The notes under the pieces are model-generated. The model saw only the letters and a program-made list of their open reading frames with translations. It searched no databases and was not told the DNA's origin. Shown one piece after another: positions 142 through 60,796 of a DNA stretch of 64,000 nucleotides. Position 1 is the stretch's first letter. Every line of letters begins with the position of its first letter. This DNA is from a plasmid: the NCBI RefSeq assembly GCF_054482595.1, contig NZ_JBTHVH010000004.1; one strand, given 5' to 3'. A program made the position numbers and the translations under genes.

Positions 142-354
142 ATGTCTGACACAAAGCAGTCTTATTTAATGAAATTCCGTAAGTGTAGTTCGTTCGAAAC
201 GCTCGAAAAAGTATTTGAAAGGTTATGTGAAAAAAACTCGGGTGTCGCCTCTCTTGAAATTTCTGGTGCTTATGATCATCGTAAAGCCGAACTGACAATG
301 AAAAAGTTATATGACAAAGTTCCTGCGAGTGTGTGGACCTTTGTTCGCGAGTAA
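142..354 (+). CDS. hha: Hha/YmoA-family expression modulator (about 70 aa)
   Basis: ORF 136..354 with ATG at 142; translation matches the Hha pattern by eye ('YLMKFRKC..ETLEKV..DHRKAELTMKKLYDKVPASVW'). Confidence 0.7.
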   Translation: MSDTKQSYLMKFRKCSSFETLEKVFERLCEKNSGVASLEISGAYDHRKAELTMKKLYDKVPASVWTFVRE

Positions 355-8611: not shown

Positions 8612-8641
8612 ATATGACAAAACCGGGGTTTTCACCCCGGT
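8612..8641 (-). terminator. Rho-independent terminator candidate downstream of terW
   Basis: Hairpin arms 'ACCGGGG'/'CCCCGGT' followed on the minus strand by a U-rich run; lies 15-40 bp after the terW stop. Confidence 0.5.
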
Positions 8642-8654
8642 CTGAGATTTAGCG

Positions 8655-9122
8655 TCAGGACTTTTTAGCGCTGTATTCTTTTATCAGTTCATCAACGGAG
8701 TGCAGAGCCAGCTTCTCTACCGCTTCACTTCGGGTCGAGCCACTCAGCGCAGCCAGACGGTCAATTTTTCTTAAAATCCGCATGCGTAGCGATAATGACA
8801 CGGCTGTTTTTTTATCCTTATCGAGTACGACCTTCCCTGTGGACTCACCGGTTTTCAGTTCAGCATTCTGTGCGAGCGCTTCATTCATCCGGCGAAGGGT
8901 CTTTTTATCCAGCTGGCCCGGATTAACGAGATGGTAGGAATGACCTGCCTTGCTGTATTTGATCTCCGCAGAATATGACTCGCGTAGCTCTTTGAGTGCC
9001 CGGGTTAATGTCGGCTCTGAGCATTCCAGACTGGTTATAATGTCGGCAGCGGAAACGGGCTTGCCGGTGCCCAGTAAGTTGGCAAGCTTAAAAATCCGGG
9101 CCTGTCTGGTATTTAATTGCAT
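8655..9122 (-). CDS. terW: TerW-like small regulatory/DNA-binding protein
   Basis: 155-aa ORF in the position and size of terW between the terY operon and the biosynthesis operon; the N-terminus looks helix-turn-helix-like. Identity is from recalled ter locus organisation. Confidence 0.65.
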   Translation of the reverse strand: MQLNTRQARIFKLANLLGTGKPVSAADIITSLECSEPTLTRALKELRESYSAEIKYSKAGHSYHLVNPGQLDKKTLRRMNEALAQNAELKTGESTGKVVLDKDKKTAVSLSLRMRILRKIDRLAALSGSTRSEAVEKLALHSVDELIKEYSAKKS

Positions 9123-9139
9123 CGTAAGATTTAGCCTGC

Positions 9140-10348
9140 TTAAAGGGTTAGTGGTTCAATAGGCTGAAAAATGAAGGTACTGCTCATCTTTCGAATAACC
9201 GGGTGATCGCCTAACGCTTCAACCGGATCAATGTGTTCTAAGCCTGCAAAATTTACTGACGACATCTGGCTGCGACTGCATTTGCAGGACAGGATATACT
9301 CATCCTCCAGATAGCCGGTCCGCTTACTGACCCGTTGCGTAAAGCCTGACACAATCACGTTGTCGAACGGTAGCGTATGTAAAACGATACCGACCAGGCG
9401 GAACAAGCAGCCATGGACGTGGCGGGCATAGTTTTCGCGTACGGCTTTTTGCGTCATGGCTTTTTCCGTCAGCTCCGTGCCCCGGGCATTAACGCCGTAA
9501 ATCTTATCAGGGAAATCTTCAATCTCAGCTAAATCAACATCCAGCAGGACTGCTGATAGCTCCGGCTTTACTTCAAATGCAACAAGCGTTTCACGCGGCC
9601 ATTCAGTTTCTGCCAGCACACCCGCCAGGTATGATTCGAAAAACGCGGCGTCTGTCCGGAACTGCTGCCGGGCATCTGCCTGAGCCGTGGCGAGCCGTTT
9701 TTCATGTTCTTCAGCCTCAAACTTCCAGTTTGCATACTGTTCGGCCCAGGCCGTCCGTTGTTGCTGGTACCGGTGCTGTCGAAGGGTATTCTCACGCTCC
9801 ACATCAATCAGCTCCTGCTGCCACCGGCGAAGATTTTCGGCGTGGCGCTCAGCTTTAGCTGATTCCGATTCAAACCATTTACCCAGAAAACTAATGCCTT
9901 CGCTCTCGGCAGGCTTTTCCGGCAATGCAAGATAGTCTGGCTTTTCTGGACGCACCGGTGCCGGAACCTGAAAAGGCGACGTTCTGTTATGCAGGTATAC
10001 TGCTTCCAGCTCTGCCCAGCTGATGCCTGTTTTAGGATCCGGCGTCAGCTCGTGAATATTACGGATTGCGGTCACCGCTGACATGAGATCAGCGGCTTCC
10101 TCCTCAAGCGCCTGTCTGAGCCCCGGGTCGGTAGCCGTCCGGTTCCCACCTCCGGAACGCGCGGCCCGATCAAGCCGGGTACGGTAACTCAGCCCGGTAC
10201 CGGGCAAGCCCAGATTGGCATAGGTCCCCCGGCTTCCAAAAGAAACGGAAGCACCTCTCGGCCCGACACTCAGGCTCGGTGCACCGTTACTCAGGTTGAG
10301 GCGAACACCAGGAATAATGTTGATCGACTTTCTGAATCTGAACCCCAT
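9140..10348 (-). CDS. DUF4236-like hypothetical protein
   Basis: N-terminus 'MGFRFRKSINIIPGVRLNLS' matches my recollection of the DUF4236 signature; the remainder is Gln/Glu-rich and coiled-coil-like; ATG at 10348. Confidence 0.55.
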   Translation of the reverse strand: MGFRFRKSINIIPGVRLNLSNGAPSLSVGPRGASVSFGSRGTYANLGLPGTGLSYRTRLDRAARSGGGNRTATDPGLRQALEEEAADLMSAVTAIRNIHELTPDPKTGISWAELEAVYLHNRTSPFQVPAPVRPEKPDYLALPEKPAESEGISFLGKWFESESAKAERHAENLRRWQQELIDVERENTLRQHRYQQQRTAWAEQYANWKFEAEEHEKRLATAQADARQQFRTDAAFFESYLAGVLAETEWPRETLVAFEVKPELSAVLLDVDLAEIEDFPDKIYGVNARGTELTEKAMTQKAVRENYARHVHGCLFRLVGIVLHTLPFDNVIVSGFTQRVSKRTGYLEDEYILSCKCSRSQMSSVNFAGLEHIDPVEALGDHPVIRKMSSTFIFQPIEPLTL

Positions 10349-10358
10349 TATGATTTCC

Positions 10359-11318
10359 TTAATGATGCTGGGTCACGGTAAGTAATCTGATTCCATCAGC
10401 GCTTTGCTCGTTCTGTAACCCATAAAAACGAGCTCTGTCCAGAATGCCAGCCGCCCAGCGGCGATGTGTGGCGGGTTCACACATTGCTCCCTGCGACTTA
10501 AACACGGCCTGGGTAGAGTTCAGGATCCGCAGAGCGTCAGAATGCTCACCCTGAGTGACCATCAGCGCGTTTTGAATGACCTCTATCTGACCCGGGTGAA
10601 TGGCCGTTTTCCCAACAAGCCCATGTGCCATATCAAGAGCCAGCTCTCTGGCCATTACGGCATGATCGTCAATATGCTCACATACGGGCGCGGTCAGGGC
10701 AAAATCACGCGGGCCGAAGACCGAAACGAGCATTTTGATGACGTAGCCCATCGGGCTGTCATACAGCGTCAGGTCCCGGGGACGGCGAAGCGACACAACG
10801 TTCATAAGATCGTTGCCGCCGATTCGAAGCGCAATAATGCGGTCGTGGCAGGGATGTTCCACCAGACGGGTGGCCAGCTCCCGCATCTGAACCACGTCAA
10901 AGACGTCTTCTGTTTCCAGCGTTGGCATCATGCACAGGTGAGTCCCGCCCATGATATCCCACCATTCAGCTAACGAACTGAGGGTAAATTTCGGCAACAC
11001 AAACCCGTCGACAGCGGAAAGATCATAATGCGCTTTTAACCATCTGCCCATTTCGGCATGCCGGGGGCGAATGAACACCAGAGGCCAGTCATTTTTACCC
11101 AGGCTATGCATGCTGTTACTGAGCTCGTGCAGCAGGTGCTCCAGATTTTTGAGGGCGACGGGGATGTCTGCTTCACTGACAGCATCCTCCAGGCAAATCA
11201 CCAGAGAGCGCAAACCCGGGATTTTCCCGTGCAGGACGGCATCAGCAATATCTTCCCGTGTTGCAGGCATGTATAGCGTGGCTCCCAGATTCCAGGGAGA
11301 AAGACGATTTTTCATCAA
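10359..11318 (-). CDS. HpcH/HpaI aldolase / citrate-lyase beta (CitE)-like protein
   Basis: 'VICLEDAV' and 'ALRIGGNDL' motifs typical of the CitE/HpcH TIM-barrel family; 319 aa. Confidence 0.7.
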   Translation of the reverse strand: MMKNRLSPWNLGATLYMPATREDIADAVLHGKIPGLRSLVICLEDAVSEADIPVALKNLEHLLHELSNSMHSLGKNDWPLVFIRPRHAEMGRWLKAHYDLSAVDGFVLPKFTLSSLAEWWDIMGGTHLCMMPTLETEDVFDVVQMRELATRLVEHPCHDRIIALRIGGNDLMNVVSLRRPRDLTLYDSPMGYVIKMLVSVFGPRDFALTAPVCEHIDDHAVMARELALDMAHGLVGKTAIHPGQIEVIQNALMVTQGEHSDALRILNSTQAVFKSQGAMCEPATHRRWAAGILDRARFYGLQNEQSADGIRLLTVTQHH

Positions 11319-12394
11319 AGTACCTTCTTGATAATGGTTACAGCCCGATACTGGCCGAGGGTTCCCCCCATTTCTGTAACAACTATTCCCTTTTCACGAG
11401 CAAGCCCTACAAGCAAGGCAACGTCCGGGTCGTCAATAGAACGCACAAATACATGGTCCGGTACCCGACGTAATACAGCCCGGGTTGCTTCAGCAATACC
11501 GGGTTTTATACGATTGACGCTGTCCACTTTAAATTCATCGGCCAGGAACGCGATAACGTCGCGACTTGTCTGCCATAAGATCCGGGCTGACTCCGTATTC
11601 CAGCTCAGGGGAGCGAGGGATGACGGGGTTAACTTCTTACGGAAATGAGCGACGGTATCGACAAGCATCCGGCTGCATTCGAATTCACTGAGATGCTCGC
11701 AAACCATGCACCCGTGTAATCCTTCAGAGGACCACACTGACCGGGAGATCAGGCCTGACACCGGCGCACCCATGATGCCAAAAGGAATGAGCCAGTCATC
11801 ATCACTGGCTGCAAGCCAGGAGCAGCCACAGGGATCGGCCAGGACAACCAGTCGCGGCTGCTCAGGATAGCCCGGGCGATCTTTCAGTGCGCGTACAAGC
11901 TCTCCGGTAATTGCGCCTTTACCTGTCCATCCGTCAACAAAGACAATACCGCTGGTACCATGCCGCTCTTCAATGACGTCGAGGGCTGCACCGTCAATTC
12001 CACGATCCCGGATAATGCTGATACCGTAATGCCATGAGGTTTTCCCCATGTCACGCAGGGCCTGGTGCAGCATAACGCCGAGCGGCACGCCAGCCCTGAC
12101 AAGACTGGCCAGTACAATGGGCTCATCACCAAAGCGTTTGGCCAGAGCAATAGCGAGCTGTGTGACTTCTTTTGCAAGTCTCTCTGCGCCCCGATCCAGC
12201 GCCCGGTGAAACAAATCAAGATGCCATTGTGTTGGCGCTGGCTCCTGACTGAGCATGTCCGAATAATGTTTCTTCCCTGACTGAATCAGCTCTTCTTTTT
12301 GCTCAACCGGCGTCATCTCAATGACAACCGGCTTTAGCAGAAATTCCACGTCACCGGGCTGGTATGAGCCGGTAAATGTGTCATGTGGCTGCAT
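11315..12394 (-). CDS. StiP-like protein (family annotated as cysteine protease StiP in ter-linked operons)
   Basis: About 360 aa Cys-containing ORF in the ter-linked operon position; ATG at 12394 with GGAG RBS preferred over the TTG at 12460. Family name is from recall, not motif proof. Confidence 0.5.
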   Translation of the reverse strand: MQPHDTFTGSYQPGDVEFLLKPVVIEMTPVEQKEELIQSGKKHYSDMLSQEPAPTQWHLDLFHRALDRGAERLAKEVTQLAIALAKRFGDEPIVLASLVRAGVPLGVMLHQALRDMGKTSWHYGISIIRDRGIDGAALDVIEERHGTSGIVFVDGWTGKGAITGELVRALKDRPGYPEQPRLVVLADPCGCSWLAASDDDWLIPFGIMGAPVSGLISRSVWSSEGLHGCMVCEHLSEFECSRMLVDTVAHFRKKLTPSSLAPLSWNTESARILWQTSRDVIAFLADEFKVDSVNRIKPGIAEATRAVLRRVPDHVFVRSIDDPDVALLVGLAREKGIVVTEMGGTLGQYRAVTIIKKVL

Positions 12395-12395
12395 T

Positions 12396-13169
12396 TTAAT
12401 TTTCTCCAAAAATTCGCTGTGAAATGGCATCTGCAAACTGACTCTGACGCGGGATGCCAAACCAGCTGCACAGTTTCATAAAACGATGATCGCTCAGGCT
12501 GTCGCCCAGGCCAATTACGGGGAAGACTCCGCGTTCAGCCCGAAGTTTTTCAAGCAGCCATCTGACGGCCAGCCCTTTCTCAACCGGGGTGGGAAGCCAG
12601 GCCACGTTATTACTGTTGCGGTGGATGTAGAAGCCCTCGGTCGGAAACACCGTTTCTATCTCATCTGCAATGGCATTGAGCTCGTCAAGGCGGGTGCTGT
12701 CGCGGTGCTTCATCACCATATAAACCGCCGTTTCACCGTATTCGAAGTTCAGCCTTGCCCAGGCATTGATCCCTTTTGCGTCCATCATTTCAGTGATCAG
12801 ACGCTGCATCGATGTCAGCTTTTCCTGGTAGGGAGCCAGCTGGCCAAGCATATGGGCCTTCCACTCCTCGTCGGGTTTGCCTTCAGGCGTGAGAATGACG
12901 GCCCCGTGCGTGGTGATTGCCCAGGAGTGGAAAGGGATCCGGACGCGGCTGATTTCTTCAGTTCCCCGGGCGGTAACAGGTATGAGTTCAGCCTGCTCCA
13001 GGAGCCAGTCCACCAACATGGACTGTTCTTCCGTCATAAAGCTTCGTGGATTCAGGGTGCGATCAACGGCACCGGTACGGAATGGCTCCAGGGCCAGCTC
13101 GTCCACCATTTTACGACGGGTCTGAAAGAGCGTGTCGTCAAGGTCGCTCAGAACAACGGGTTTATTCAT
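12396..13169 (-). CDS. HAD-superfamily hydrolase (phosphatase)
   Basis: HAD motif I 'VLSDLDDTLF' directly after the start 'MNKPVV' (ATG at 13169). The 112-codon N-extension in the track ORF is rejected because it overlaps the upstream PRTase gene. Confidence 0.75.
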   Translation of the reverse strand: MNKPVVLSDLDDTLFQTRRKMVDELALEPFRTGAVDRTLNPRSFMTEEQSMLVDWLLEQAELIPVTARGTEEISRVRIPFHSWAITTHGAVILTPEGKPDEEWKAHMLGQLAPYQEKLTSMQRLITEMMDAKGINAWARLNFEYGETAVYMVMKHRDSTRLDELNAIADEIETVFPTEGFYIHRNSNNVAWLPTPVEKGLAVRWLLEKLRAERGVFPVIGLGDSLSDHRFMKLCSWFGIPRQSQFADAISQRIFGEN

Positions 13170-14304
13170 AGGTAACAATCTCCACGACGGGCGCAACCTC
13201 AGCCAGGGCTTTAAGAAGCTGCGTGTCAATACTTTCTGCGGGTGTCTCAGTACACACAAGAATACGGTCAAACTGCTGGTGGGCGACGTTATAGACAAAA
13301 TTGGGGATGCCCAGCCCGTAGTTATCCGTAAAGGAAATGGCGGACTCAATGGCATAACCAACGGCGATAGGGGAGCGGGTGGTCGAACCATAAAGTGCCT
13401 GTGCTCCGGCAGCTTCGAGCCGTTCAGCAAGCAGGAACGGCTCCCAGACGAATTCCCCGGTCCCGAGAACCAGAATACGTTCCCCCTTGCGGACGGAGAC
13501 CTCATGGCCGAGATCGGCCGCAGGTGCGAGCATCCCCAGTCGACCCCAGGACTGTTTTCCCAGGATGTCCCATTCTCCGCGTGAAGTTACGTTGACTTTC
13601 GGCATGTCCGGGACAGGTGCATCAGGTAATGGGGTCCATCCCCACTGACCGCTTACAAGCGAAACCGAAGTGACGGGCAAGGATGTGCGCTCCGACAGGG
13701 CGTTGCTACTCCAGTCGGTAAGCGTAACGGCGATAACCTGTTCAATATGTTGAAGCTTGCCGGTATTACGCAGGGCAGAAAGCAGGTTAATAAAGGTATT
13801 ACCGGTGGTTGCCTCGTCATCAATCAAAACCAGCGTTCGTGCGTTGGTAACACGACGTCTTTTCTCTTCATCATCTGGCAGATAGATCAGATGATCGGTG
13901 GCGTGGCTGTGTTCTTCCTTGAACTCGCAAAGTAACGTGCCATCAACCGGGTGACGGGTAGAGGTCAGATAGACAGATTCACGATGCTGGTGGCGCACTT
14001 CATCAAACACACCGGCCCCTAGCCCAACGGCGGTTTCAGCCATACCGATAAAAAGTACGGGCCCTGCCAGCGTTGCGGGGAACTGGCTGGCAAGCTGTCT
14101 GTAGGCCTGCCGCATGACTGAGGGTGGCACGGGAATGTGCCTGCCGAGTACTTTGCTGACAAACAGAAAGGCGCGTTTCGGGTTACGTCTTTCAGCGATA
14201 TCAAACAGGTCATCGAGCGAAACATCACCCTGGTCGCGGGTTACCTGTATCGTACCGCATGAGAGGGTACGGCGATAAATCATATCTTCGAGGGTATCAG
14301 ACAT
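13162..14304 (-). CDS. Phosphoribosyltransferase-domain protein (PRTase_2/TRSP-like)
   Basis: PRPP-binding signature 'TLVLIDDEATTGNTF'; about 380 aa; ATG at 14304. Confidence 0.75.
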   Translation of the reverse strand: MSDTLEDMIYRRTLSCGTIQVTRDQGDVSLDDLFDIAERRNPKRAFLFVSKVLGRHIPVPPSVMRQAYRQLASQFPATLAGPVLFIGMAETAVGLGAGVFDEVRHQHRESVYLTSTRHPVDGTLLCEFKEEHSHATDHLIYLPDDEEKRRRVTNARTLVLIDDEATTGNTFINLLSALRNTGKLQHIEQVIAVTLTDWSSNALSERTSLPVTSVSLVSGQWGWTPLPDAPVPDMPKVNVTSRGEWDILGKQSWGRLGMLAPAADLGHEVSVRKGERILVLGTGEFVWEPFLLAERLEAAGAQALYGSTTRSPIAVGYAIESAISFTDNYGLGIPNFVYNVAHQQFDRILVCTETPAESIDTQLLKALAEVAPVVEIVTYE

Positions 14305-14313
14305 AAACACGCC

Positions 14314-15372
14314 TTAATTCAGATGGTTAGAGAGTGATTCCGGGTAAACGATGACATCTGTGATGGATCTCACTGCAACCGGAGAAAAGGTATTTCTGGC
14401 GCTCTGGATCACCGCATCTTCAGACATCAGACCGAGCTTAAAGGCAGCAAACAACCCGGGAAGGTTCACCCCGCTGTGAAGGGTATAACCCACCCCGCCT
14501 GACGGACGCATGTTGGTTTCAAGCAGCACCGGGTTGCCATTCACATCGTTTCGCGTCTGAACATTCACCAGCCCGTCGGCCTTCATAACCCGGGCGCAGT
14601 CACAAGCCAGTTCCCAGGCGCTTCCTTCGTTTACCAGATACTGGATAGCCCCTTCCTTACGGCGTCCCACGGCTGCGAGTATTTCGCCCTTATCCGCGAG
14701 GATATCGACGGAAAATTCCGGGCCTGGCAGGTACGGCATCAAAACAAGGGGTTTAAACGACTCAGAAGCCGATGCTGCTGCAATATACTGTTGCGGACTG
14801 ACCAGACGATGTTCGGGATGATTAAAGACGGCCATGGGCGAAGCACTGTCATCAAAGCGCCAGAATCCCATGCCATAGATACCCGTCACCGGCTTCACGC
14901 ATACCGGGCTGTCCGAGAACGGCGGGGCCGCGAGGTGCGTCTTTAATTCTGCCAGCGTATTCACCCGCCAGGACGGTACGACCGGGAGCCCGTTTTGCTC
15001 CATAAACTGAGCAAAAGTAACTTTTTCGTCAGCCAGAGTTAACCAGTCGACGCCTGTTGCACCGGTAGTAAGGGTGGCTCCGGTCGATTCAATGGCTGAA
15101 CGGTGTTCTTCAAACCACTGGCTGTTACGGCCAGTATGAATATGGTGGATGCCGTAGGTCTGAATGGTTTCCTGAATAAACTGAAGACGTTTTTGAGGAT
15201 CTTCAGGTTCAGTCAAAGAATAATCGGCAACGGAAAGAATTTCATGTCTTTCGTTACGGTGGGAGGCAAATACGGTAATAGCAAAATTATTTTTTTGTGC
15301 AAATGATTTTACCCCCTGAATAATATCTCGCTGGGAGGACAAACCTTCCATAAACCAAATTTTCTTGTTCAT
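14314..15372 (-). CDS. ATP-grasp family enzyme
   Basis: ATP-grasp motif 'LLETNMRPSGG'; first gene of the minus-strand operon, divergent from terZ. Confidence 0.75.
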   Translation of the reverse strand: MNKKIWFMEGLSSQRDIIQGVKSFAQKNNFAITVFASHRNERHEILSVADYSLTEPEDPQKRLQFIQETIQTYGIHHIHTGRNSQWFEEHRSAIESTGATLTTGATGVDWLTLADEKVTFAQFMEQNGLPVVPSWRVNTLAELKTHLAAPPFSDSPVCVKPVTGIYGMGFWRFDDSASPMAVFNHPEHRLVSPQQYIAAASASESFKPLVLMPYLPGPEFSVDILADKGEILAAVGRRKEGAIQYLVNEGSAWELACDCARVMKADGLVNVQTRNDVNGNPVLLETNMRPSGGVGYTLHSGVNLPGLFAAFKLGLMSEDAVIQSARNTFSPVAVRSITDVIVYPESLSNHLN

Positions 15373-15694
15373 TTTTTTTAATTATCCGGAACGCCATGCA
15401 AATTTATGATTGAGAAGTGAGTCTATGAGTGTCTACGCTACATGTCAATCATAATATGATTAATAACTTCAGTGGTTATGGAGTGCGTCAGTGTTTTTTT
15501 AGTACCTTATAACGTATTGATATTTAAATTAAAAATAGAAAAATGAACACCATGAAAAGGATTTATTTTTGTGTTTTTGAAGAAAACTACCAAAATTTCC
15601 CTTGTCAGAGAACTTCATCATGATATGATTTTCTTCGTCAGTTACTAAATATACCTTTGATTGTCTCGGTCATTACCATTTTAAGGAATAAAAC
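15373..15694. promoter_or_regulatory. AT-rich divergent control region between the biosynthesis operon and terZ
   Basis: 322-bp non-coding, strongly AT-rich gap between divergently transcribed operons; no specific promoter elements assigned. Confidence 0.4.
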
Positions 15695-16276
15695 ATGGTT
15701 TCATTAGTTAAGAACCAGACGGTATCACTCAGCAAAGAATCATCTGCATTAAGCCAGCTTCATTTCGGTCTCGGTTGGGATCCGGTTAAGAAAAAAGGTC
15801 TTCTTGGAGGATTGTTTGGAGGCAACGACTCAATCGATCTCGATGCTGGCTGCGTATTAATGGACAGCACCGGTAAAACAATTGACACCATCTGGTTCCG
15901 CAAACTGGAATCCACCTGCGGCGCTGTTGTGCACAGTGGCGATAACCTGACCGGTGAGGGTGACGGTGACGATGAGGTGATTAAGGTCAACCTCTCCCGA
16001 CTGCCTGCAAACGTTGAATACCTGGCGTTTACGGTAAACAGCTTCCGTGGTCAGTCGTTCAATGACGTCGAAAACGCGTTCTGCCGCGTTGTCGATCAAA
16101 CCGGCAAAGAGCTGGCTCGCTACAAGCTGACTGAGCAGGGCTCACATACCGGGATCGTTATTTCTTCGCTGCGCCGTAATAACGGCAACTGGGACTTTAC
16201 CGCCCTTGGCCATGCCTGTCGCGGCCGCACAATTGACGATATGCACTCCGATATCGTTTCAGCGGTTATTCGCTAA
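15695..16276 (+). CDS. terZ: Tellurite resistance protein TerZ (TerD family)
   Basis: '[15 protein letters not shown]' TerD motif; 193 aa; first gene of the Z-A-B-C-D-E order. Confidence 0.85.
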   Translation: MVSLVKNQTVSLSKESSALSQLHFGLGWDPVKKKGLLGGLFGGNDSIDLDAGCVLMDSTGKTIDTIWFRKLESTCGAVVHSGDNLTGEGDGDDEVIKVNLSRLPANVEYLAFTVNSFRGQSFNDVENAFCRVVDQTGKELARYKLTEQGSHTGIVISSLRRNNGNWDFTALGHACRGRTIDDMHSDIVSAVIR

Positions 16277-17433
16277 TGAACCTGACGCCGGGGGGCAATG
16301 CCCCCGTTCCAGCCCAGGAGTTGCGGGTCCGGATCACCTCGGGCGGCCAGGTGGATGCTTCGGCGTTTCGCCTGTATGCCGACGGGAAGGTGCAGGGTGA
16401 TGCGGACATGGTGTTTTATGGTCAGCCACGTAACGATGATGGTACCGTCAGCCTGGTCAGTGAAGGCCAGTACTCAACCTTTACTGTCGCGCTCAACCGG
16501 CTGAAACCTGATGTCCAGAAAATTGCGTTCACCGTGACCTGTGACGGTGGGCAGACGGTGTCCGGTCTTCGTAATCTTTCCATCGACGTGGAGCAAGGGG
16601 CTACCGGCCTGGTTAGCGGCAGTGTCGAACTGAGCGGCCGTCAGGAAGCAGCCTTAATTCTGGGTGAATTTTACCGTCGTAATAATGACTGGAAATTCCG
16701 CTTCGTTGCGCAGGGGTTCAACGGTGGACTTAAACCGCTGGCAGAGCATTTCGGCGTAAATATTGCCGACGAACCGGCTCCCGCAGCCCCGACTCCTCCG
16801 GTTGTAACCCCTCCGCCAGTTGAGACAAAAATCAGCCTGAGCAAGGTATCGCTGACAAAAGAGAAGCCTGCAATCAGCCTGACCAAACGGGATAACTTCG
16901 GTGAAATCCGGATCAACCTGAACTGGCACCGGGGCAGCGGCAAATCAGGCTTTGCAGGCATGTTCGGCTCCAAAGGAATCGACCTGGATCTGGGGGCCTT
17001 TGTTGAGCTTCAGGACGGGTATAAATCGGTCATTCAGGCGCTCGGTAATGCATTCGGTAATTATCGGGATGAACCGTATGTTCAGCTCAAGGGCGATGAC
17101 CGTACGGGTGATGTATCAGACGGCGAGTGGCTGCATATCAATGGACGTGAATGGAAGCATATCCGCGAAGTGCTGATTTACGCCTTTATTTATGAAGGTG
17201 TTCCCAGCTGGGACAAGACTGATGGTGTGGTCACCATTCATGTGCCGGATCAACCGCCCATTGAGACCCGCCTGACCGAAGGTGAAAACCGTCGCACATT
17301 GTGCGCCATTGCCAGACTCGTAAACGAAAACGGCGCAATTAAAGTCGAGCGAATTAACCAGTACTTCAAAGGCCAGGACGAAATGGACCGGGCATTTGGC
17401 TGGGGATTTCGCTGGAGCGCCGGTTCTAAATAA
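16276..17433 (+). CDS. terA: Tellurite resistance protein TerA
   Basis: 385 aa with two TerD-like halves; its start overlaps the terZ stop (TAATGA). Confidence 0.8.
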   Translation: MNLTPGGNAPVPAQELRVRITSGGQVDASAFRLYADGKVQGDADMVFYGQPRNDDGTVSLVSEGQYSTFTVALNRLKPDVQKIAFTVTCDGGQTVSGLRNLSIDVEQGATGLVSGSVELSGRQEAALILGEFYRRNNDWKFRFVAQGFNGGLKPLAEHFGVNIADEPAPAAPTPPVVTPPPVETKISLSKVSLTKEKPAISLTKRDNFGEIRINLNWHRGSGKSGFAGMFGSKGIDLDLGAFVELQDGYKSVIQALGNAFGNYRDEPYVQLKGDDRTGDVSDGEWLHINGREWKHIREVLIYAFIYEGVPSWDKTDGVVTIHVPDQPPIETRLTEGENRRTLCAIARLVNENGAIKVERINQYFKGQDEMDRAFGWGFRWSAGSK

Positions 17434-17455
17434 CACAGCAACAAAGGAAACAGGT

Positions 17456-17911
17456 ATGAGCTTTTTCGACAAAGTTAAAGGTGCCATTAACTCAGGCCGT
17501 GACGAACTGACCCGCCAGGTTGGCCGTTTCAAAAACAAAAAATTCATGCAGGGCACCGTTGCTGTATGTGCCCGTATTGCCGTATCGAGTGACGGCGTAA
17601 GTTCGGAAGAAAAGCAGAAAATGATGGGCTTTCTGCGCTCTTCAGAAGAGCTGAAGGTCTTCGATACCAATGAGGTGATTGAGTTCTTCAATAAACTGGT
17701 TTCAAGCTTCGATTTCGATGTTGAAATCGGCAAGGGCGAAACCATGAAATACATCCTGGCGCTGAAAGATCAGCCTGAGGCCGCTCAGCTGGCCTTACGT
17801 GTTGGTATTGCCGTTGCGAAAAGTGACGGTAACTTCGATCAGGACGAGAAACTGGCCTCCCGCGAGATCGCTATCGCGTTGGGCTTCGACCCGGCTGAAT
17901 TTGGCCTCTGA
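17456..17911 (+). CDS. terB: Tellurite resistance protein TerB
   Basis: 151 aa; ATG at 17456 with AAAGGAAACAGG RBS; the track N-extension is rejected. Confidence 0.8.
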   Translation: MSFFDKVKGAINSGRDELTRQVGRFKNKKFMQGTVAVCARIAVSSDGVSSEEKQKMMGFLRSSEELKVFDTNEVIEFFNKLVSSFDFDVEIGKGETMKYILALKDQPEAAQLALRVGIAVAKSDGNFDQDEKLASREIAIALGFDPAEFGL

Positions 17912-17933
17912 TCCACATCCCTAAGGGTAAAAT

Positions 17934-18974
17934 ATGGTTTCCACACACATCGGCTTCCCGACTGAAACGGTCATTGTTTTTATTGCGCTTTCAGTCGGTG
18001 CCATCTTTATTGACCTGTTTATGCACCGTGATGACAAGCCTATCTCGCTGAAGAGTGCGGCGCTCTGGTCCGTATTCTGGGTTGTGGTTGCGATGGCATT
18101 TGCCGGTTTCCTCTATATCCACCACGGTGCTGAGGTTGCCAGTCTGTTTGTCACGGGTTATGCGCTGGAGAAAGTGCTGTCGGTCGATAACCTGTTCGTC
18201 ATGATGGCCATCTTCTCCTGGTTCGCCGTTCCGGATCGTTATCGCCACCGTGTTCTCTACTGGGGGATCATTGGTGCCATTGTCTTCAGGGGCATCTTTG
18301 TCGCCATCGGTACGAGCCTGCTGAGTCTGGGGCCGTACGTTGAAGTTGTCTTCGCTATTATCGTTGCCTGGACAGCGGTCATGATGCTTAAAAGCGGTGA
18401 TGACGATGATGAAATTGAGGATTACTCCCAGCATCTGGCTTACCGCATGGTTAAACGCTTCTTCCCTATCTGGCCGAAGCTCAGAGGGCATGCCTTCCTG
18501 CTTAACCAGAAGGAAGTGGATGCTGAACTGGCGAAACCAGAAAACAGCGATGTCACCATTGGCCGTGGTAAAAAAGCGGCGCTGTATGCGACCCCGCTGT
18601 TCCTGTGTGTAGCTGTGGTTGAACTCTCGGACGTAATGTTCGCGTTTGACTCGGTACCGGCAATCATTGCCGTCAGTCGTGAACCGCTTATCGTCTATAG
18701 TGCCATGATGTTTGCTATCCTGGGCCTGCGTACTCTGTACTTTGTCCTTGAGGCACTGAAACAGTACCTGGTTCATCTGGAGAAGGCCGTTATCGTGCTG
18801 CTGTTCTTCATCGCGGCAAAACTCGGCCTGAATGCGACCGATCACATCTGGCATCATGGTTACAGCATCGCGGCAACAACCAGCCTGTATGTTGTACTGG
18901 GTGTACTGGCGCTGGGCATTCTCGCAAGCGTCATGTTCCCGGGCAAACCTGAATCTGAGGAAAAGGGGAGTTAA
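17934..18974 (+). CDS. terC: Tellurite resistance integral membrane protein TerC
   Basis: 346 aa with multiple hydrophobic segments, in the expected position. Confidence 0.85.
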   Translation: MVSTHIGFPTETVIVFIALSVGAIFIDLFMHRDDKPISLKSAALWSVFWVVVAMAFAGFLYIHHGAEVASLFVTGYALEKVLSVDNLFVMMAIFSWFAVPDRYRHRVLYWGIIGAIVFRGIFVAIGTSLLSLGPYVEVVFAIIVAWTAVMMLKSGDDDDEIEDYSQHLAYRMVKRFFPIWPKLRGHAFLLNQKEVDAELAKPENSDVTIGRGKKAALYATPLFLCVAVVELSDVMFAFDSVPAIIAVSREPLIVYSAMMFAILGLRTLYFVLEALKQYLVHLEKAVIVLLFFIAAKLGLNATDHIWHHGYSIAATTSLYVVLGVLALGILASVMFPGKPESEEKGS

Positions 18975-19022
18975 TCCCCTTAAGTGTTAACCTGAACAAT
19001 TACTAATCGAAGAGGTTATTTT

Positions 19023-19601
19023 ATGAGTGTTTCTCTTTCCAAAGGCGGGAACGTCTCCCTGAGTAAAGCAGCTCCGTCAATGAAAAACGTCCTGGTGGGC
19101 CTTGGCTGGGATGCGCGTTCAACAGACGGTCAGGACTTTGACCTGGATGCTTCAGCGTTCCTGCTGGCCTCAAACGGCAAAGTGCGCGGCGATTCAGATT
19201 TCATCTTCTATAACAACCTGACGTCATCTGACGGTTCCGTAACCCATACCGGTGATAACCGTACCGGTGAAGGTGATGGTGATGATGAATCGCTGAAAAT
19301 TAAACTGGACGCCGTCCCGTCTGATGTTGACAAGATCATCTTCGTTGTCACTATCCATGATGCTCAGGCTCGTCGCCAGAGCTTTGGTCAGGTATCCGGT
19401 GCGTTTATTCGCCTGGTCAATGACGATAACCAGACTGAAGTCGCTCGCTACGATCTGACCGAAGATGCGTCCACTGAGACTGCCATGCTGTTCGGCGAGC
19501 TGTATCGCCACAATGGTGAGTGGAAATTCCGCGCAGTGGGCCAGGGTTATGCTGGTGGTCTGGCATCTGTATGTGCTCAGTACGGCATTAACGCGTCCTG
19601 A
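19023..19601 (+). CDS. terD: Tellurite resistance protein TerD
   Basis: '[15 protein letters not shown]'; 192 aa. Confidence 0.85.
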
Positions 19602-19668
19602 TCGAAAAGTAACTTTTCACCCGGGGCTGTTAATGCAGCCCTCATTCAACTGTTTGCAGGAGCTAAAA

Positions 19669-20244
19669 ATGGCAGTTTCTCTCGTAAAAGGCGGCAACGT
19701 ATCTCTGACCAAAGAAGCACCAACCATGAATATCGCTATGGTTGGCCTCGGCTGGGATGCCCGTGTAACTGACGGTCAGGCTTTTGACCTGGACGCTTCC
19801 GTGTTCGCAGTAGGCGAAGACGGTAAAGTGCTGTCAGATGCGCATTTCATTTTCTTCAATAACAAAACCAGCCCTGATGGCGCGGTAGAGCACCAGGGCG
19901 ACAACCGTACCGGTGAAGGCGACGGTGACGATGAGCAGGTCAAAATCGATCTGACCAAAGTCTCAGCAGATATCAAAAAACTGGTGTTTGCCGTTACCAT
20001 CTATGATGCAGAAGCGCGTAAACAAAACTTCGGCATGGTGAGCAACAGCTTCATACGCGTTTACAACAACGACAACGGCACGGAAATTGCCCGTTTCGAT
20101 CTGTCTGAAGATGCCTCAACCGAAACCGCTATGGTCTTCGGTGAACTGTATCGTCATGGCGCTGAGTGGAAGTTTAAAGCTGTCGGTCAGGGCTTTGCCG
20201 GTGGCCTGGCGGCTCTTGCCTCCCAGCACGGCGTTAACATCTAA
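19669..20244 (+). CDS. terE: Tellurite resistance protein TerE
   Basis: '[15 protein letters not shown]'; ATG at 19669; the track N-extension is rejected. Confidence 0.85.
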
Positions 20245-20672: not shown

Positions 20673-21914
20673 GTGAATCTACAATCCGGACAAAACATAC
20701 CGCTTCAGCAATCTGCGATCAGGCTGAATCTTCAGTACCCTGCCAAATCCGGCTTTAAAGGCGAACCCGATACCTGCCTCTTCCTGCTTAATGCTCAGGG
20801 AAAGGTAACCGGCGATTCTGACTTTATCTTTTATAATAATCTGTCTTCTCCTGAAGGGGCAGTAAAGCTCGTTACCGGTTCTCAGCAGTCCAGCATTGAG
20901 ATAGCACTGGATCGTGTTCCGGCGAACGTCAGTAAGATTGCGATCACCGTTGTCATTGATGGTGAAGATACTATCAGTGGGCTCAGTTTATTGAGCATTC
21001 AGGCTCCTGGTATCGCTGATTTTCAGGCTGAGACTCAGGGCCGCAGTGAGAAAGCAATCATCCTGGGTGAAGTATATCGGCACAATGGCGCCTGGAAGCT
21101 TCGTGCGCTCGGGCAGGGTTTCAACGGTGGTCTTGAGCCTCTGGCCATTAGCTTTGGCGTTGATGTCGCACAGCCAGCTCCGCAGCCAGCAAAGCCTGCT
21201 CGTATCAGTCTGGAAAAGAAACTTGAAACCAGATCTCCGCGCCTCGTAAGCCTCGCTAAAAAAGCCTCGGTCAGTCTCACTAAAAATAAACTGGACACCC
21301 TTGAGGCAGCGGTTGCATTTGTACTTGACGCATCCGGCTCAATGAGTGGCCAGTTCAGTAAGGGCAACGTTCAGTCTGTGCTGGACCGCATCGCCGTTCT
21401 TGCCGCCCAGTTCGACGACGACGGTGAAATGGATGTCTGGGGATTTGGAGAGAAGCACAAGAAGTATCCAAACGTCACACTGGACAACCTGGACACATAT
21501 ATTCAGTCCATTCGCGGGTCTGGAAAGCGTTCAGCCTGGGAGAACCTGCCGGGACTTGGTGGGACAAACAATGAGCCCCCTGTGATGGAAGAAATTGTCG
21601 ACTACTTTAAGGACTCGAAAATCCCGGTATATGTTGTATTTATTACCGATGGCGGGATCAGCAAGACCCGGGCGATTAAAGATGCAATCCGGCGTTCTGC
21701 CAACTACCCCATCTTCTGGAAGTTTGTCGGCCTGGGTGGTTCAAGCTACGGTATCCTCAAAAATCTGGATGACTTTACTGACCGCCGGGTTGATAACACC
21801 CACTTCTTTGCCATGGATGATTTCGGTTCGATCAGCGATGAAAAGTTATATGATAATTTACTGGAAGAATTCAGACCGTGGATCGATGAAACAAAAAGGT
21901 TAGGCATCCTGTAA
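20673..21914 (+). CDS. terF: TerF: TerD-like N-terminal domain fused to a C-terminal vWA domain
   Basis: GTG start at 20673 with AGGAGAG RBS; C-terminal half has MIDAS '[12 protein letters not shown]'. Confidence 0.8.
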
Positions 21915-27215: not shown

Positions 27216-27461
27216 ATGAGAGAGCCAAGACCACGCCATACCTTGCAGGTCATTCGTGTACCTTCTCTGGAGGTTCAGGACCTGGGGCTGACCAGCTTTG
27301 ATAGCTGGCTTGACGAGCACGGGTATGACAAAACGAATGCCAGAAATAACCGTACCATCTGGGCGAGAGAAGGCGGATGGCATCTGAAACGTTGCAGAAA
27401 TCTTGAAACTGGCACGGACGATTTCTGGTTTATCGCTTTCGATGGTAAAGGCGGGAAGATT
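27216..27461 (+). pseudogene. Hypothetical gene truncated at its 3' end by IS26
   Basis: The reading frame runs directly into the IS26 terminal inverted repeat at 27462. Confidence 0.4.
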
Positions 27462-28281
27462 GGCACTGTTGCAAAGTTAGCGATGAGGCAGCCTTTTGTC
27501 TTATTCAAAGGCCTTACATTTCAAAAACTCTGCTTACCAGGCGCATTTCGCCCAGGGGATCACCATAATAAAATGCTGAGGCCTGGCCTTTGCGTAGTGC
27601 ACGCATCACCTCAATACCTTTGATGGTGGCGTAAGCCGTCTTCATGGATTTAAATCCCAGCGTGGCGCCGATTATCCGTTTCAGTTTGCCATGATCGCAT
27701 TCAATCACGTTGTTCCGGTACTTAATCTGTCGGTGTTCAACGTCAGACGGGCACCGGCCTTCGCGTTTGAGCAGAGCAAGCGCGCGACCATAGGCGGGCG
27801 CTTTATCCGTGTTGATGAATCGCGGGATCTGCCACTTCTTCACGTTGTTGAGGATTTTACCCAGAAACCGGTATGCAGCTTTGCTGTTACGACGGGAGGA
27901 GAGATAAAAATCGACAGTGCGGCCCCGGCTGTCGACGGCCCGGTACAGATACGCCCAGCGGCCATTGACCTTCACGTAGGTTTCATCCATGTGCCACGGG
28001 CAAAGATCGGAAGGGTTACGCCAGTACCAGCGCAGCCGTTTTTCCATTTCAGGCGCATAACGCTGAACCCAGCGGTAAATCGTGGAGTGATCGACATTCA
28101 CTCCGCGTTCAGCCAGCATCTCCTGCAGCTCACGGTAACTGATGCCGTATTTGCAGTACCAGCGTACGGCCCACAGAATGATGTCACGCTGAAAATGCCG
28201 GCCTTTGAATGGGTTCATGTGCAGCTCCATCAGCAAAAGGGGATGATAAGTTTATCACCACCGACTATTTGCAACAGTGCC
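27462..28281 (-). mobile_element. IS26 copy 1 (820 bp)
   Basis: 14-bp terminal inverted repeats GGCACTGTTGCAAA at both ends; internal transposase identical in all five copies; no target-site duplication. Confidence 0.95.
27514..28218 (-). CDS. tnpA: IS26 transposase (234 aa)
   Basis: 'MNPFKGRHFQRDIILWAVRWYCKYGISYRELQEM...'; the track ORF includes a 6-codon upstream extension. Confidence 0.95.
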   Translation of the reverse strand: MNPFKGRHFQRDIILWAVRWYCKYGISYRELQEMLAERGVNVDHSTIYRWVQRYAPEMEKRLRWYWRNPSDLCPWHMDETYVKVNGRWAYLYRAVDSRGRTVDFYLSSRRNSKAAYRFLGKILNNVKKWQIPRFINTDKAPAYGRALALLKREGRCPSDVEHRQIKYRNNVIECDHGKLKRIIGATLGFKSMKTAYATIKGIEVMRALRKGQASAFYYGDPLGEMRLVSRVFEM

Positions 28282-28304
28282 GTTGATCGTGCTATGATCG
28301 ACTG

Positions 28305-38234: not shown

Positions 38235-38793
38235 CTGAGAGATCCCCTCATAATTTCCCCAAAGCGTAACCATGTGTGAATAAATTTTGAGCTAGTAGGG
38301 TTGCAGCCACGAGTAAGTCTTCCCTTGTTATTGTGTAGCCAGAATGCCGCAAAACTTCCATGCCTAAGCGAACTGTTGAGAGTACGTTTCGATTTCTGAC
38401 TGTGTTAGCCTGGAAGTGCTTGTCCCAACCTTGTTTCTGAGCATGAACGCCCGCAAGCCAACATGTTAGTTGAAGCATCAGGGCGATTAGCAGCATGATA
38501 TCAAAACGCTCTGAGCTGCTCGTTCGGCTATGGCGTAGGCCTAGTCCGTAGGCAGGACTTTTCAAGTCTCGGAAGGTTTCTTCAATCTGCATTCGCTTCG
38601 AATAGATATTAACAAGTTGTTTGGGTGTTCGAATTTCAACAGGTAAGTTAGTTGCTAGAACCCATGGCTCCTTTGCCGACGCTGAGTAGATTTTAGGTGA
38701 CGGGTGGTGACAATGAGTCCGTGTCGAGCGCTGATTTTTTCGGCCTTTAGAGCGAGATTTATACAATAGAATTTGGCATGAGATTGGATTGCT
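38235..38793 (-). mobile_element. IS10 fragment (terminal about 560 bp, transposase C-terminus), truncated by IS26
   Basis: Starts with the IS10 end 'CTGAGAGATCCCCTCATAATTTCCCCAAAGCGTAACC'; the encoded C-terminal fragment ends '...LFTHGYALGKL'. Confidence 0.7.
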
Positions 38794-39613
38794 GGCACTG
38801 TTGCAAAGTTAGCGATGAGGCAGCCTTTTGTCTTATTCAAAGGCCTTACATTTCAAAAACTCTGCTTACCAGGCGCATTTCGCCCAGGGGATCACCATAA
38901 TAAAATGCTGAGGCCTGGCCTTTGCGTAGTGCACGCATCACCTCAATACCTTTGATGGTGGCGTAAGCCGTCTTCATGGATTTAAATCCCAGCGTGGCGC
39001 CGATTATCCGTTTCAGTTTGCCATGATCGCATTCAATCACGTTGTTCCGGTACTTAATCTGTCGGTGTTCAACGTCAGACGGGCACCGGCCTTCGCGTTT
39101 GAGCAGAGCAAGCGCGCGACCATAGGCGGGCGCTTTATCCGTGTTGATGAATCGCGGGATCTGCCACTTCTTCACGTTGTTGAGGATTTTACCCAGAAAC
39201 CGGTATGCAGCTTTGCTGTTACGACGGGAGGAGAGATAAAAATCGACAGTGCGGCCCCGGCTGTCGACGGCCCGGTACAGATACGCCCAGCGGCCATTGA
39301 CCTTCACGTAGGTTTCATCCATGTGCCACGGGCAAAGATCGGAAGGGTTACGCCAGTACCAGCGCAGCCGTTTTTCCATTTCAGGCGCATAACGCTGAAC
39401 CCAGCGGTAAATCGTGGAGTGATCGACATTCACTCCGCGTTCAGCCAGCATCTCCTGCAGCTCACGGTAACTGATGCCGTATTTGCAGTACCAGCGTACG
39501 GCCCACAGAATGATGTCACGCTGAAAATGCCGGCCTTTGAATGGGTTCATGTGCAGCTCCATCAGCAAAAGGGGATGATAAGTTTATCACCACCGACTAT
39601 TTGCAACAGTGCC
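38794..39613 (-). mobile_element. IS26 copy 2
   Basis: Identical terminal repeats and transposase; boundary set by the fixed 52/45-bp offsets from the tnp ORF; no target-site duplication. Confidence 0.95.
38846..39550 (-). CDS. tnpA: IS26 transposase
   Basis: Identical to copy 1. Confidence 0.95.
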   Translation of the reverse strand: MNPFKGRHFQRDIILWAVRWYCKYGISYRELQEMLAERGVNVDHSTIYRWVQRYAPEMEKRLRWYWRNPSDLCPWHMDETYVKVNGRWAYLYRAVDSRGRTVDFYLSSRRNSKAAYRFLGKILNNVKKWQIPRFINTDKAPAYGRALALLKREGRCPSDVEHRQIKYRNNVIECDHGKLKRIIGATLGFKSMKTAYATIKGIEVMRALRKGQASAFYYGDPLGEMRLVSRVFEM

Positions 39614-41716: not shown

Positions 41717-42536
41717 GGCACTGTTGCAAATAGTCGGTGGTGATAAACTTATCATCCCCTTTTGCTGATGGAGCTGCACATGAACCCATTCAAAGGCCGG
41801 CATTTTCAGCGTGACATCATTCTGTGGGCCGTACGCTGGTACTGCAAATACGGCATCAGTTACCGTGAGCTGCAGGAGATGCTGGCTGAACGCGGAGTGA
41901 ATGTCGATCACTCCACGATTTACCGCTGGGTTCAGCGTTATGCGCCTGAAATGGAAAAACGGCTGCGCTGGTACTGGCGTAACCCTTCCGATCTTTGCCC
42001 GTGGCACATGGATGAAACCTACGTGAAGGTCAATGGCCGCTGGGCGTATCTGTACCGGGCCGTCGACAGCCGGGGCCGCACTGTCGATTTTTATCTCTCC
42101 TCCCGTCGTAACAGCAAAGCTGCATACCGGTTTCTGGGTAAAATCCTCAACAACGTGAAGAAGTGGCAGATCCCGCGATTCATCAACACGGATAAAGCGC
42201 CCGCCTATGGTCGCGCGCTTGCTCTGCTCAAACGCGAAGGCCGGTGCCCGTCTGACGTTGAACACCGACAGATTAAGTACCGGAACAACGTGATTGAATG
42301 CGATCATGGCAAACTGAAACGGATAATCGGCGCCACGCTGGGATTTAAATCCATGAAGACGGCTTACGCCACCATCAAAGGTATTGAGGTGATGCGTGCA
42401 CTACGCAAAGGCCAGGCCTCAGCATTTTATTATGGTGATCCCCTGGGCGAAATGCGCCTGGTAAGCAGAGTTTTTGAAATGTAAGGCCTTTGAATAAGAC
42501 AAAAGGCTGCCTCATCGCTAACTTTGCAACAGTGCC
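41717..42536 (+). mobile_element. IS26 copy 3
   Basis: Terminal repeats at both ends; opposite orientation to copies 1 and 2. Confidence 0.95.
41780..42484 (+). CDS. tnpA: IS26 transposase
   Basis: Identical to the other copies. Confidence 0.95.
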   Translation: MNPFKGRHFQRDIILWAVRWYCKYGISYRELQEMLAERGVNVDHSTIYRWVQRYAPEMEKRLRWYWRNPSDLCPWHMDETYVKVNGRWAYLYRAVDSRGRTVDFYLSSRRNSKAAYRFLGKILNNVKKWQIPRFINTDKAPAYGRALALLKREGRCPSDVEHRQIKYRNNVIECDHGKLKRIIGATLGFKSMKTAYATIKGIEVMRALRKGQASAFYYGDPLGEMRLVSRVFEM

Positions 42537-45033: not shown

Positions 45034-46594
<1,561 letters not shown>

Positions 46595-49808: not shown

Positions 49809-49919
49809 CTTCTGGTTTCATGTTGAACAAAGAAGACCCTTTAGCTTCTGTAATCCATTTAATCAGTCTGAATGAAATAGATTATAAATTCTGCTCTGCA
49901 TACCTGCTTAACCAAAGTC

Positions 49920-60108: not shown

Positions 60109-60277
60109 GCTTAATTTGGATTATTTTTTGGTTCAGGTTCTAAATTTATTGTGATTATTCTGCCTTTAAGTTGCAAAAAGATTGGTTTTAAGCCCGCCCA
60201 TGAAATAATGACTTGTTAAAATACTGCCTGTAAATAGGCTTGTGGATACATGTCTGTACTCAACAAATCAAGGTGAA

Positions 60278-60796
60278 ATGATGTTTTTTTTAACAAAGTT
60301 ACTTTTGCCCATCATGATTGTTGTATTCCCAGTGGCGTCCTGGGGGAACTCAACAACTTTTGAGGCAAAGGTGGTTAAGATTGTTGACGGTGACACCATA
60401 ACTGCGTTGGATGCTCAAAACACAACCATCAAAATACGGATGTATGGTATAGACGCTCCTGAATCTAAACAGGCTTTTGGCCAAAAAGCAAAACAGGCCT
60501 TAACCACAGCTATAGCAACTAAAATCGTTACCGTGATAGACCATGGTACGGATATCTATGGCCGTATGTTAGGTACCATCTGGTTAGATGGATATGATAT
60601 CAATGCCTCTATGGTGGACAGTGGATATGCGTGGGTTTATCGGTTCGAAGATAACGCCATTGTCCCTGGCTATATCAAATATGAATCCGCAGCACAAAAG
60701 GAGGCAAAAGGGTTATGGGCAGACACCAACCCTGTCCCACCATGGCAGTGGAGACAGGCAAACGAAAAGCCCAGAAAGGTGAAAGAGAAGAAATAA
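60278..60796 (+). CDS. Thermonuclease (staphylococcal-nuclease-like) family protein with signal peptide
   Basis: N-terminal hydrophobic signal; 'VVKIVDGDTI...IRMYGIDAPES' SNase-like core; ATG at 60278 with AAGGTGA RBS. Confidence 0.7.
   Translation: MMFFLTKLLLPIMIVVFPVASWGNSTTFEAKVVKIVDGDTITALDAQNTTIKIRMYGIDAPESKQAFGQKAKQALTTAIATKIVTVIDHGTDIYGRMLGTIWLDGYDINASMVDSGYAWVYRFEDNAIVPGYIKYESAAQKEAKGLWADTNPVPPWQWRQANEKPRKVKEKK

Follow-up and report, generated by a model that had tools for sequence, protein, structure and literature searches.

The DNA analysed, a 64,000-nucleotide stretch of a plasmid (contig NZ_JBTHVH010000004.1 of assembly GCF_054482595.1; hereafter the window), represents the ter region of a conjugative plasmid of the IncHI2 type, and the annotation of plasmid pN13-01290_23 is collinear with window positions 3300-27018. 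Two operons diverge here from one intergenic gap at 15373-15694, bounded by the start of an ATP-grasp ORF at 15372 (- strand; ORF 14314-15372) and the start of terZ at 15695 (+ strand; ORF 15695-16276); these are exactly the limits given in the original prediction, which had named this 322-bp interval as a control region shared by both operons. The leftward operon consists of seven genes, starting next to the gap with the ATP-grasp gene (ATP-grasp_Ter, PF15632) and continuing with genes for a phosphoribosyltransferase, a HAD-like protein, a StiP protease, an HpcH/CitE-like protein, a DUF4236 protein and TerW. On the other side lies terZABCDE, with terF (20673-21914) 428 bp beyond it. On this plasmid the leftward operon appears to end with terW, as judged from the arrangement of that gene: it begins 17 nt past the DUF4236 gene, no promoter-like site was found in those 17 nt, and the terminator-like hairpin directly behind it likely marks the end of the leftward transcript. 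An Hha-like gene, also announced in the original prediction, is present at ~151-348 (+ strand), with 50% identity to E. coli Hha and a Pfam HHA match at E = 7e-19. The coordinates of the features are given in Table 1.

Table 1. Features of the divergent ter control region and its two operons (window coordinates).
Feature	Position	Strand	Remarks
AT-rich intergenic control region	15373..15694		between ATP-grasp gene and terZ; G+C 0.298
Leftward structural genes	9140..15372	-	ATP-grasp, PRTase, HAD-like, StiP, HpcH/CitE-like, DUF4236; tightly packed or overlapping
terW, regulator gene	8655..9122	-	last gene of leftward operon, as it appears
Terminator-like hairpin	8620..8643	-	10-bp stem, T-rich tail, directly 3' of terW
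terZABCDE operon	15695..20244	+	rightward
Leftward -10 TAGACT	15420..15425	-	predicted; 17-nt spacer; conserved 0.7-0.8
Leftward -35 TTGACA	15443..15448	-	predicted promoter of the ATP-grasp to terW operon; ~0.9 conserved in 59 box-anchored gaps
Box L, palindrome ATCATAATATGAT	15448..15460		putative TerW operator; conserved block 15442-15462
AT-rich spacer core	15461..15601		box L to PterZ -35; sequence not conserved, length and ~73% A+T conserved
IHF-like core, consensus TATCAATACGTTA (WATCAANNNNTTR)	15510..15522	-	candidate; 62 bp from box L centre; perfect match, 0.05 expected
PterZ -35 TTGTCA	15602..15607	+	predicted; TTG 0.9 conserved
Box R, palindrome ATCATGATATGAT	15617..15629		putative TerW operator; conserved block 15611-15632
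terZ Shine-Dalgarno AAGGA	15683..15687	+	conserved; preceded by unstructured ~58-nt leader

The strong AT-richness ascribed to the gap was borne out by its composition (29.8% G+C, 70.2% A+T), compared with a G+C fraction of 0.50 for the whole window and ~0.53 for the flanking genes. Just 0.23% of the 322-bp segments in the 64 kb reach such an A+T content, and the gap forms the second deepest G+C trough within them. The sequence is widespread: it was retrieved from 1346 plasmid records, mostly conjugative and of IncHI2 type and many of them at 100% identity, and from 954 of 5426 complete E. coli genomes, among them those of O157:H7, where the chromosomal copy is 94.7% identical.

Promoters were located by a consensus scan of the gap, which returned one good candidate per strand, each matching the consensus at 10 of 12 positions; the pair is predicted to act as two sigma-70 promoters that fire outward, back to back. 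From the hexamers, transcription would start near 15413 for the leftward promoter and near 15636 for the rightward one. The rightward promoter, PterZ, has a 16-nt spacer and a predicted extended -10 element, TGaTATGAT (TG at 15621-15622, TATGAT at 15624-15629). A repeat finder, used independently of the promoter scan, detected two perfect 13-bp palindromes of the form ATCAT-N3-ATGAT, designated box L and box R, at a centre-to-centre distance of 169 bp. Box L directly adjoins the leftward -35 hexamer, with its centre near -41 relative to the leftward start as placed above, and box R contains the extended -10 element of PterZ. Across the 64 kb, perfect cores of this type occur at these two positions only; allowing for up to one mismatch, 6 strand-matches were counted in the window versus 1.2 expected, a number reached in 0 of 100 shuffles. 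Two further hits of the repeat finder, direct repeat D2 and inverted repeat I3, fall into non-conserved alignment columns and were treated as chance occurrences.

For comparison, 78 loci were collected via alignment of ATP-grasp homologues, with one genome per species, covering Enterobacter, Klebsiella, Serratia, Pectobacterium, Proteus, Morganella, Providencia, Yersinia, Pantoea, Erwinia, Rahnella and other genera. In the approximately 55 loci with terW, the gap measures 311-330 bp and has a G+C content of 25-39%, next to flanks that range from 39 to 61%, and the boxes are centred at ~80 nt (box L) and ~72 nt (box R) from the start codons of the ATP-grasp gene and terZ, respectively; this layout is kept in loci whose proteins are down to 41-60% identical. 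Seven loci possess terZ without a flanking terW; their gaps are long and carry no boxes at all. This association of terW with the boxes is confounded by phylogeny, since the loci without terW belong to the most distant lineages. A count over the homologous loci (1.27 Mb) placed 112 perfect cores inside gaps and 4 outside.

A weighted footprint over 59 gaps resolved the conserved positions. They comprise box L together with the TTGACA hexamer (15442-15462), the leftward TAGACT -10 (~15419-15427), the TTG at 15602-15604 of the PterZ -35 and box R (15611-15632), whereas the ~130-bp core between the boxes scores 0.3-0.5. The conservation pattern among closer plasmid relatives is the same. In box R, the left half (ATCA) lies outside any promoter element and is nevertheless conserved at 0.9 or above, which argues that box R serves as an operator and is not merely a -10 element. 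With a promoter on each strand, the same palindrome paired with each of them and a layout kept across Enterobacterales, the proposal of a divergent control region through which the operons are co-regulated is upheld: the gap is the bidirectional promoter-operator region common to both ter operons. In published RNA-seq data from Pectobacterium, both divergent operons likewise move together (PMC7843439).

The ter gap is already a known regulatory region, and the putative TerW operator pair of this plasmid family is contained in a published supplement. In the supplementary FASTA file of Kravchenko et al. (2021), the TerW site 'terZ1_R478' corresponds exactly to the reverse strand of window positions 15442-15466, and 'terZ2_R478' to positions 15611-15635 with one mismatch in the flank (PMC7843439). 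According to the same paper, the interval that separates terZABCDE from the divergent operon has two putative TerW sites in its middle part, and a third, weak one precedes terY1 (PMC7843439). The TerW-regulated ter promoter regions of R478 (IncHI2), pTE53/pKL53 and Pectobacterium represent the same locus as the gap, whose sequence is practically that of R478. The two mid-gap sites agree between these systems; the weak pre-terY1 site of Pectobacterium has no counterpart here, as no third TerW operator was found upstream of terY or terW in the relevant gaps of the window at up to 3 mismatches. That TerW binds and protects the ter promoter region is stated in that study with reference to Valkovicova et al. 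(2011, Biologia 66:565) (PMC7843439), and regulation of the ter operon by TerW is repeated in other papers. Binding of TerW to exactly boxes L and R is a putative assignment, made from this secondary citation together with the comparative data. Functionally, terW protects E. coli against the lethality of cloned terZA (PMC4633105).

For TerW itself, no Pfam family scored above threshold, with weak matches to HTH_11 and to RHH_1 or HicB-like families alone, and a sequence and profile search of the PDB yielded a single marginal match to an RHH antitoxin (E = 0.22). An AlphaFold model of the monomer, computed with 32 homologues, has a mean pLDDT of 84.7 and displays a winged helix (residues 5-67) followed by a long helix, a disordered linker (residues 92-105) and a C-terminal strand-helix-helix segment that is RHH-like. 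Foldseek neighbours of the N-terminal domain are repressors of the MarR/ArsR type, at weak E-values of 3e-3 to 3e-2. A reasonable model would thus be a winged-helix dimer that reads the 5-3-5 palindrome and is joined through the RHH-like domain.

We consider it probable that the gap is controlled mainly by TerW, the DNA-binding protein encoded at the locus itself. One TerW dimer would occupy each 13-bp palindrome. On box R it would cover the -10 element of PterZ, and on box L, at roughly -36 to -48 in the leftward promoter, it would touch the leftward -35; because both promoters would be obstructed in this way, TerW is expected to shut both operons together. As terW appears to be the last leftward gene, box L would also make it autoregulated, so that TerW may limit its own synthesis. 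In Pectobacterium, terW apparently has its own PhoP-dependent promoter (PMC7843439). A phoP mutant of that organism showed terW down 6.9-fold, terZABCDE up ~5-6-fold and the ATP-grasp operon up ~2-fold, for which the authors preferred direct control by PhoP to a TerW cascade (PMC7843439). Repression at both promoters is the reading that we infer from the position of box R on the -10, from the relation of terW to terZA toxicity and from these RNA-seq data.

In contrast to its sequence, the length of the AT-rich core is conserved. Over 59 homologous loci the gap measures 320.7 ± 5.4 bp, while control gaps in the same loci vary from 59 to 765 bp (terE-terF) and from 157 to 2488 bp (terW-terY). 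The distance between the boxes is 166-171 bp in 52 of 62 cases of the genome set; six loci have 157-160 bp, the remaining values are 145, 136, 35 and 255 bp, and none of the 62 falls at 161-165 or 146-156 bp. An independent metagenome scan, which admitted spacings of 143-173 bp, yielded 60 unique spacers in 29 clusters, with 19 clusters at 166-172 bp, five at 156-157 bp, four at 143-146 bp and one at 162 bp. The spacings thereby group into classes of 166-172, 156-160 and 143-146 bp, between which only one of 91 values (162 bp) is found. In a tree of ATP-grasp and TerZ, at least four independent shifts, of -9, -11, -12 and -24 bp, are nested within the 166-171-bp clade. The helical turn of DNA in vivo is ~11-12 bp, as derived from looping studies, and with this value the shifts amount to about one or two turns. 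The quantisation depends on few independent events (roughly p = 0.03) and has exceptions at 162 bp and at 35 bp (Enterobacillus).

Across the homologous spacers, AA/TT dinucleotides recur with a period of 10-10.5 bp (z = 11-13, for sequences that are related to one another); in the window's own spacer neither this periodicity nor A-tract phasing was significant (z = 0.84, p = 0.19). In a scan of the gap with consensus motifs of global regulators, the IHF core alone was matched. Relatives of IncHI2 and IncHI1B type retain this IHF-like core and differ only at its N4 positions. In other genera an IHF-like core lies 60-62 bp from the centre of box R in 25 of 57 unique gaps, and a perfect core is present in 18 of 57 spacers, compared to 1.8 expected. 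Many of the one-mismatch cores read AATCAT and could instead be additional TerW half-sites. Taken together, the fixed spacing, the periodicity and the IHF-like cores suggest that two operator-bound complexes must face each other, in the style of a repression loop. The AT-rich core would then be a bendable spacer that separates the operators by ~16 helical turns and leaves them on one face of the DNA, and the two bound TerW units might cooperate through a DNA loop, possibly with the help of IHF. Such a phase-locked loop, with TerW at two operators bridging the divergent promoters over an AT-rich, length-conserved spacer that is bent by IHF in many lineages, is put forward tentatively, as a possibility that we hold to be somewhat short of an even chance. 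If it is true, one nucleoprotein complex switches the toxic terZABCDE operon, the metabolite-biosynthesis operon and terW together, and the length of the spacer evolves only by whole-turn steps.

Among the other explanations, some concern the action of TerW and the identity of the protein at the boxes. TerW could be a dual regulator that represses PterZ from box R and activates the leftward operon, and thereby itself, in class II fashion from box L. The geometry is indeed asymmetric, with box R on the -10 and the centre of box L ~41 bp upstream of the leftward start as inferred; class II activators, too, classically bind at a position centred near -41.5, which counts against pure repression. 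With its perfect TTGACA as -35, however, the leftward promoter should not need an activator, and in the Pectobacterium phoP mutant the ATP-grasp operon rises while terW falls, the opposite of activation (PMC7843439), so that a dual role appears improbable. A good deal less probable still is that the palindromes are not TerW sites at all, box R being just an extended -10 and box L, or both boxes, serving OxyR, a Fur-family protein, PhoP or CRP. Box R does overlap TGaTATGAT, OxyR control of ter has been suggested in some papers (PMC9933665), and PhoP sites have been proposed in Pectobacterium (PMC7843439). Yet at permissive thresholds the gap contains no consensus match for OxyR, Fur, Zur, CRP, FNR, PhoP or Fis, and the tetranucleotide-repeat motif of OxyR has no match in it at up to 7 mismatches. 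The non-promoter half of box R is conserved equally with the -10 half, the palindromes are near-exclusive to the gap (112 versus 4, as counted above) and missing where terW is missing, and the published attribution of the sites is to TerW (PMC7843439). We regard it as barely credible that the operons are coupled by a product of the gap, either a small protein or a structured RNA (riboswitch, attenuator or sRNA). Although the gap accommodates eight ORFs of 20-36 codons, these are all confined to non-conserved sequence; RefSeq annotation records no feature inside the gap across the 954 E. coli genomes, an Rfam scan of the gap gave no family at E ≤ 1, and both leaders fold less stably than shuffled sequences (z = +1.06 for terZ, z = +1.53 for the leftward leader).

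Silencing by H-NS and Hha concerns the AT-rich core itself. H-NS/Hha-silenced AT-rich promoters are known from acquired DNA such as the transfer genes of the IncHI plasmid R27, hly and proU, and the ter gap resembles them in being AT-rich, in its possible curvature and in lying on a plasmid of IncHI type with an Hha homologue of its own. Together with Hha from the plasmid or the chromosome, H-NS could coat the gap and silence both promoters, either as the main control or as a layer over TerW. With 70% A+T across 322 bp, the gap exceeds the ~65% A+T over a few hundred bp that typifies silenced regions, and only one spot of the window is more AT-rich; the AT-richness recurs in every lineage, even beside flanks of 55-61% G+C, the 10-10.5-bp AA/TT periodicity of many homologous spacers suggests curvature, and the Hha-family gene of the window is located 15 kb from the gap. 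Both proteins are established regulators on IncHI plasmids, where they are known for thermoregulation of conjugation, not for ter (PMC6764697). This evidence is compositional, however, and the periodicity is not significant in the window's own spacer. The high-affinity nucleation motif of H-NS (TCGATAAATT) has 0 matches in the gap at up to 2 mismatches, with ~1.0 expected by chance. The flanking genes, at ~53% G+C, are not AT-rich as the neighbours of silenced promoters are, so that there is no extended AT-rich tract for an H-NS filament to spread along. Conservation falls on the TerW boxes and promoter hexamers rather than on the AT-rich core, and a dedicated, sequence-specific regulator accounts for these elements; the same architecture is moreover found in chromosomal loci remote from any plasmid-borne hha, and our literature search found no ChIP, hns-mutant or hha-mutant data on ter. 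We therefore consider H-NS/Hha control unlikely; if acting, it would be an additional layer rather than the main control. That chromosomal loci of many genera retain an AT-rich core of fixed length speaks for a structural function inherent in the ter switch, and not for the silencing of foreign DNA.

The arrangement has counterparts in NagC at nagE-nagBACD and in the GalR/HU 'repressosome', in which a single repressor occupies two operators overlapping promoters or adjoining them, 100-200 bp apart and necessarily in helical phase, with an architectural bend introduced by CAP or HU in the intervening DNA. In the nag system divergent promoters are repressed together, as is proposed here for ter. 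NagC and GalR belong to the ROK and LacI families, respectively, to which TerW, with its predicted winged helix and RHH-like segment, is unrelated; the spacing in ter is 169 bp and the candidate bending protein is IHF, and for ter the loop, the oligomerisation of TerW and the architectural protein are all proposals. The present analysis refines a known system and is not a new discovery. What it adds as testable refinements are the promoter and operator geometry, the family-wide conservation, a probable autoregulation of terW, the whole-turn spacing of the operators and a candidate IHF site.

Carriers of the ter locus include IncHI2 resistance plasmids, O157:H7 and other STEC, hypervirulent Klebsiella, Yersinia and Proteus. 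The locus underlies tellurite-based selective media, and uncontrolled expression of terZA is toxic; the predicted promoters and operators provide a concrete experimental handle on what switches ter on, and they indicate that terZABCDE and the predicted metabolite-biosynthesis operon are regulated as a single unit. For Proteus mirabilis, Toptchieva et al. (2003, Microbiology 149:1285) reportedly found a single, tellurite-inducible start upstream of terZ, with direct and inverted repeats in the promoter region. That region is said to have had no sequence identity to other ter promoter regions and to contain OxyR-like motifs. In contrast to that account, the Proteus loci in our alignment carry the same two boxes as the other ter gaps, at the same positions.

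The spacer between the two putative TerW operators of the AT-rich gap (window 15373-15694), box L (15448-15460) and box R (15617-15629), contains a candidate IHF site on the minus strand. Among the homologous ter loci fetched for comparison (L-numbers), the IHF core consensus was found in 18 of 57 unique spacers, with 1.8 expected, and is thus enriched. Its position is fixed across genera at -61 from the centre of box R in L013, L016, L019, L029-L038, L042, L043, L063 and L078; in the lineage of this plasmid the core is mirrored, and lies 62 bp from box L, not from box R. Among the one-mismatch variants of the core, many have the sequence AATCAT, and these could be TerW half-sites instead. Coordinates of the annotated features are given in the table.

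Annotated features of the window
Feature	Position	Strand	Remarks
Hha-family gene	151-348	+	shares 50% identity with E. coli Hha; matches Pfam HHA (E = 7e-19)
Terminator-like hairpin, strong	8620-8643	-	directly after terW
IHF core consensus (candidate site)	15510-15522	-	between both TerW boxes
IS26, five copies	27459-28282, 38793-39613, 41717-42536, 45034-45854, 48989-49810		
Strongly AT-rich troughs	62150-62471, 63102-63423, 59985-60306		G+C 0.28-0.33; plasmid backbone, right end of window

The number of boxes varies between lineages. L054, L061 (Yersinia), L063 (Pantoea sp. IMH), L071 and L074 (Mixta, Pantoea eucrina) have a third perfect box, which precedes box R by exactly 35 bp and lies just 5' of the -35 element of the rightward promoter PterZ. 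In Enterobacillus (L053) the gap measures 178 bp, and the boxes consist of the 35-bp pair only. The C. freundii IncHI1B plasmid NZ_CP115615.1 (L083) carries a natural box L variant, ATCATAATGTGAT, with one half-site changed and the gap otherwise 94% identical; it represents a naturally occurring operator mutant, ready for comparison.

On the left side of the gap, annotation of the ATP-grasp start codon is inconsistent between records. In some E. coli records (P0001-P0004) the annotated protein is 381 aa long and extended at the N-terminus by 29 residues, the codons for which would reach into the gap; L004 and L005 have GTG where the gene in the window has ATG. L004 (CACSKA010000014.1) is labelled Chryseobacterium sp. 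18061, and its ter locus is about 95% identical to that of this enterobacterial plasmid. It is the same as L005, a Citrobacter contig of that study; contamination, mis-binning or the transfer of a plasmid inside an experimental community would seem to explain the match.

At the other end of the leftward operon, the terminal hairpin and the distance of only 17 nt (9123-9139) between the DUF4236 gene and terW make terW look co-transcribed with the biosynthetic operon in this plasmid. DUF4236 is found immediately 5' of terW in only 7 homologous loci. For TerW (8655-9122, minus strand) no Pfam family scored above threshold, although terW is a widely used marker gene; modelling suggests an unusual two-domain architecture, winged-helix plus ribbon-helix-helix-like.

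The Hha-family gene is probably a member of the IncHI backbone regulatory set. An AT-rich trough follows downstream of it, at about 352-673; the lowest G+C of the whole window is found in the trough at 62150-62471. On the downstream side of the ter/hipA region, the window consists of a mosaic module of multiresistance, with lnu(F), aadA and blaTEM-1 among others, and here it departs from the plasmid that served as annotation reference. The 13-mer ATCGTGCTATGAT is present twice, at 28286 and 31355.
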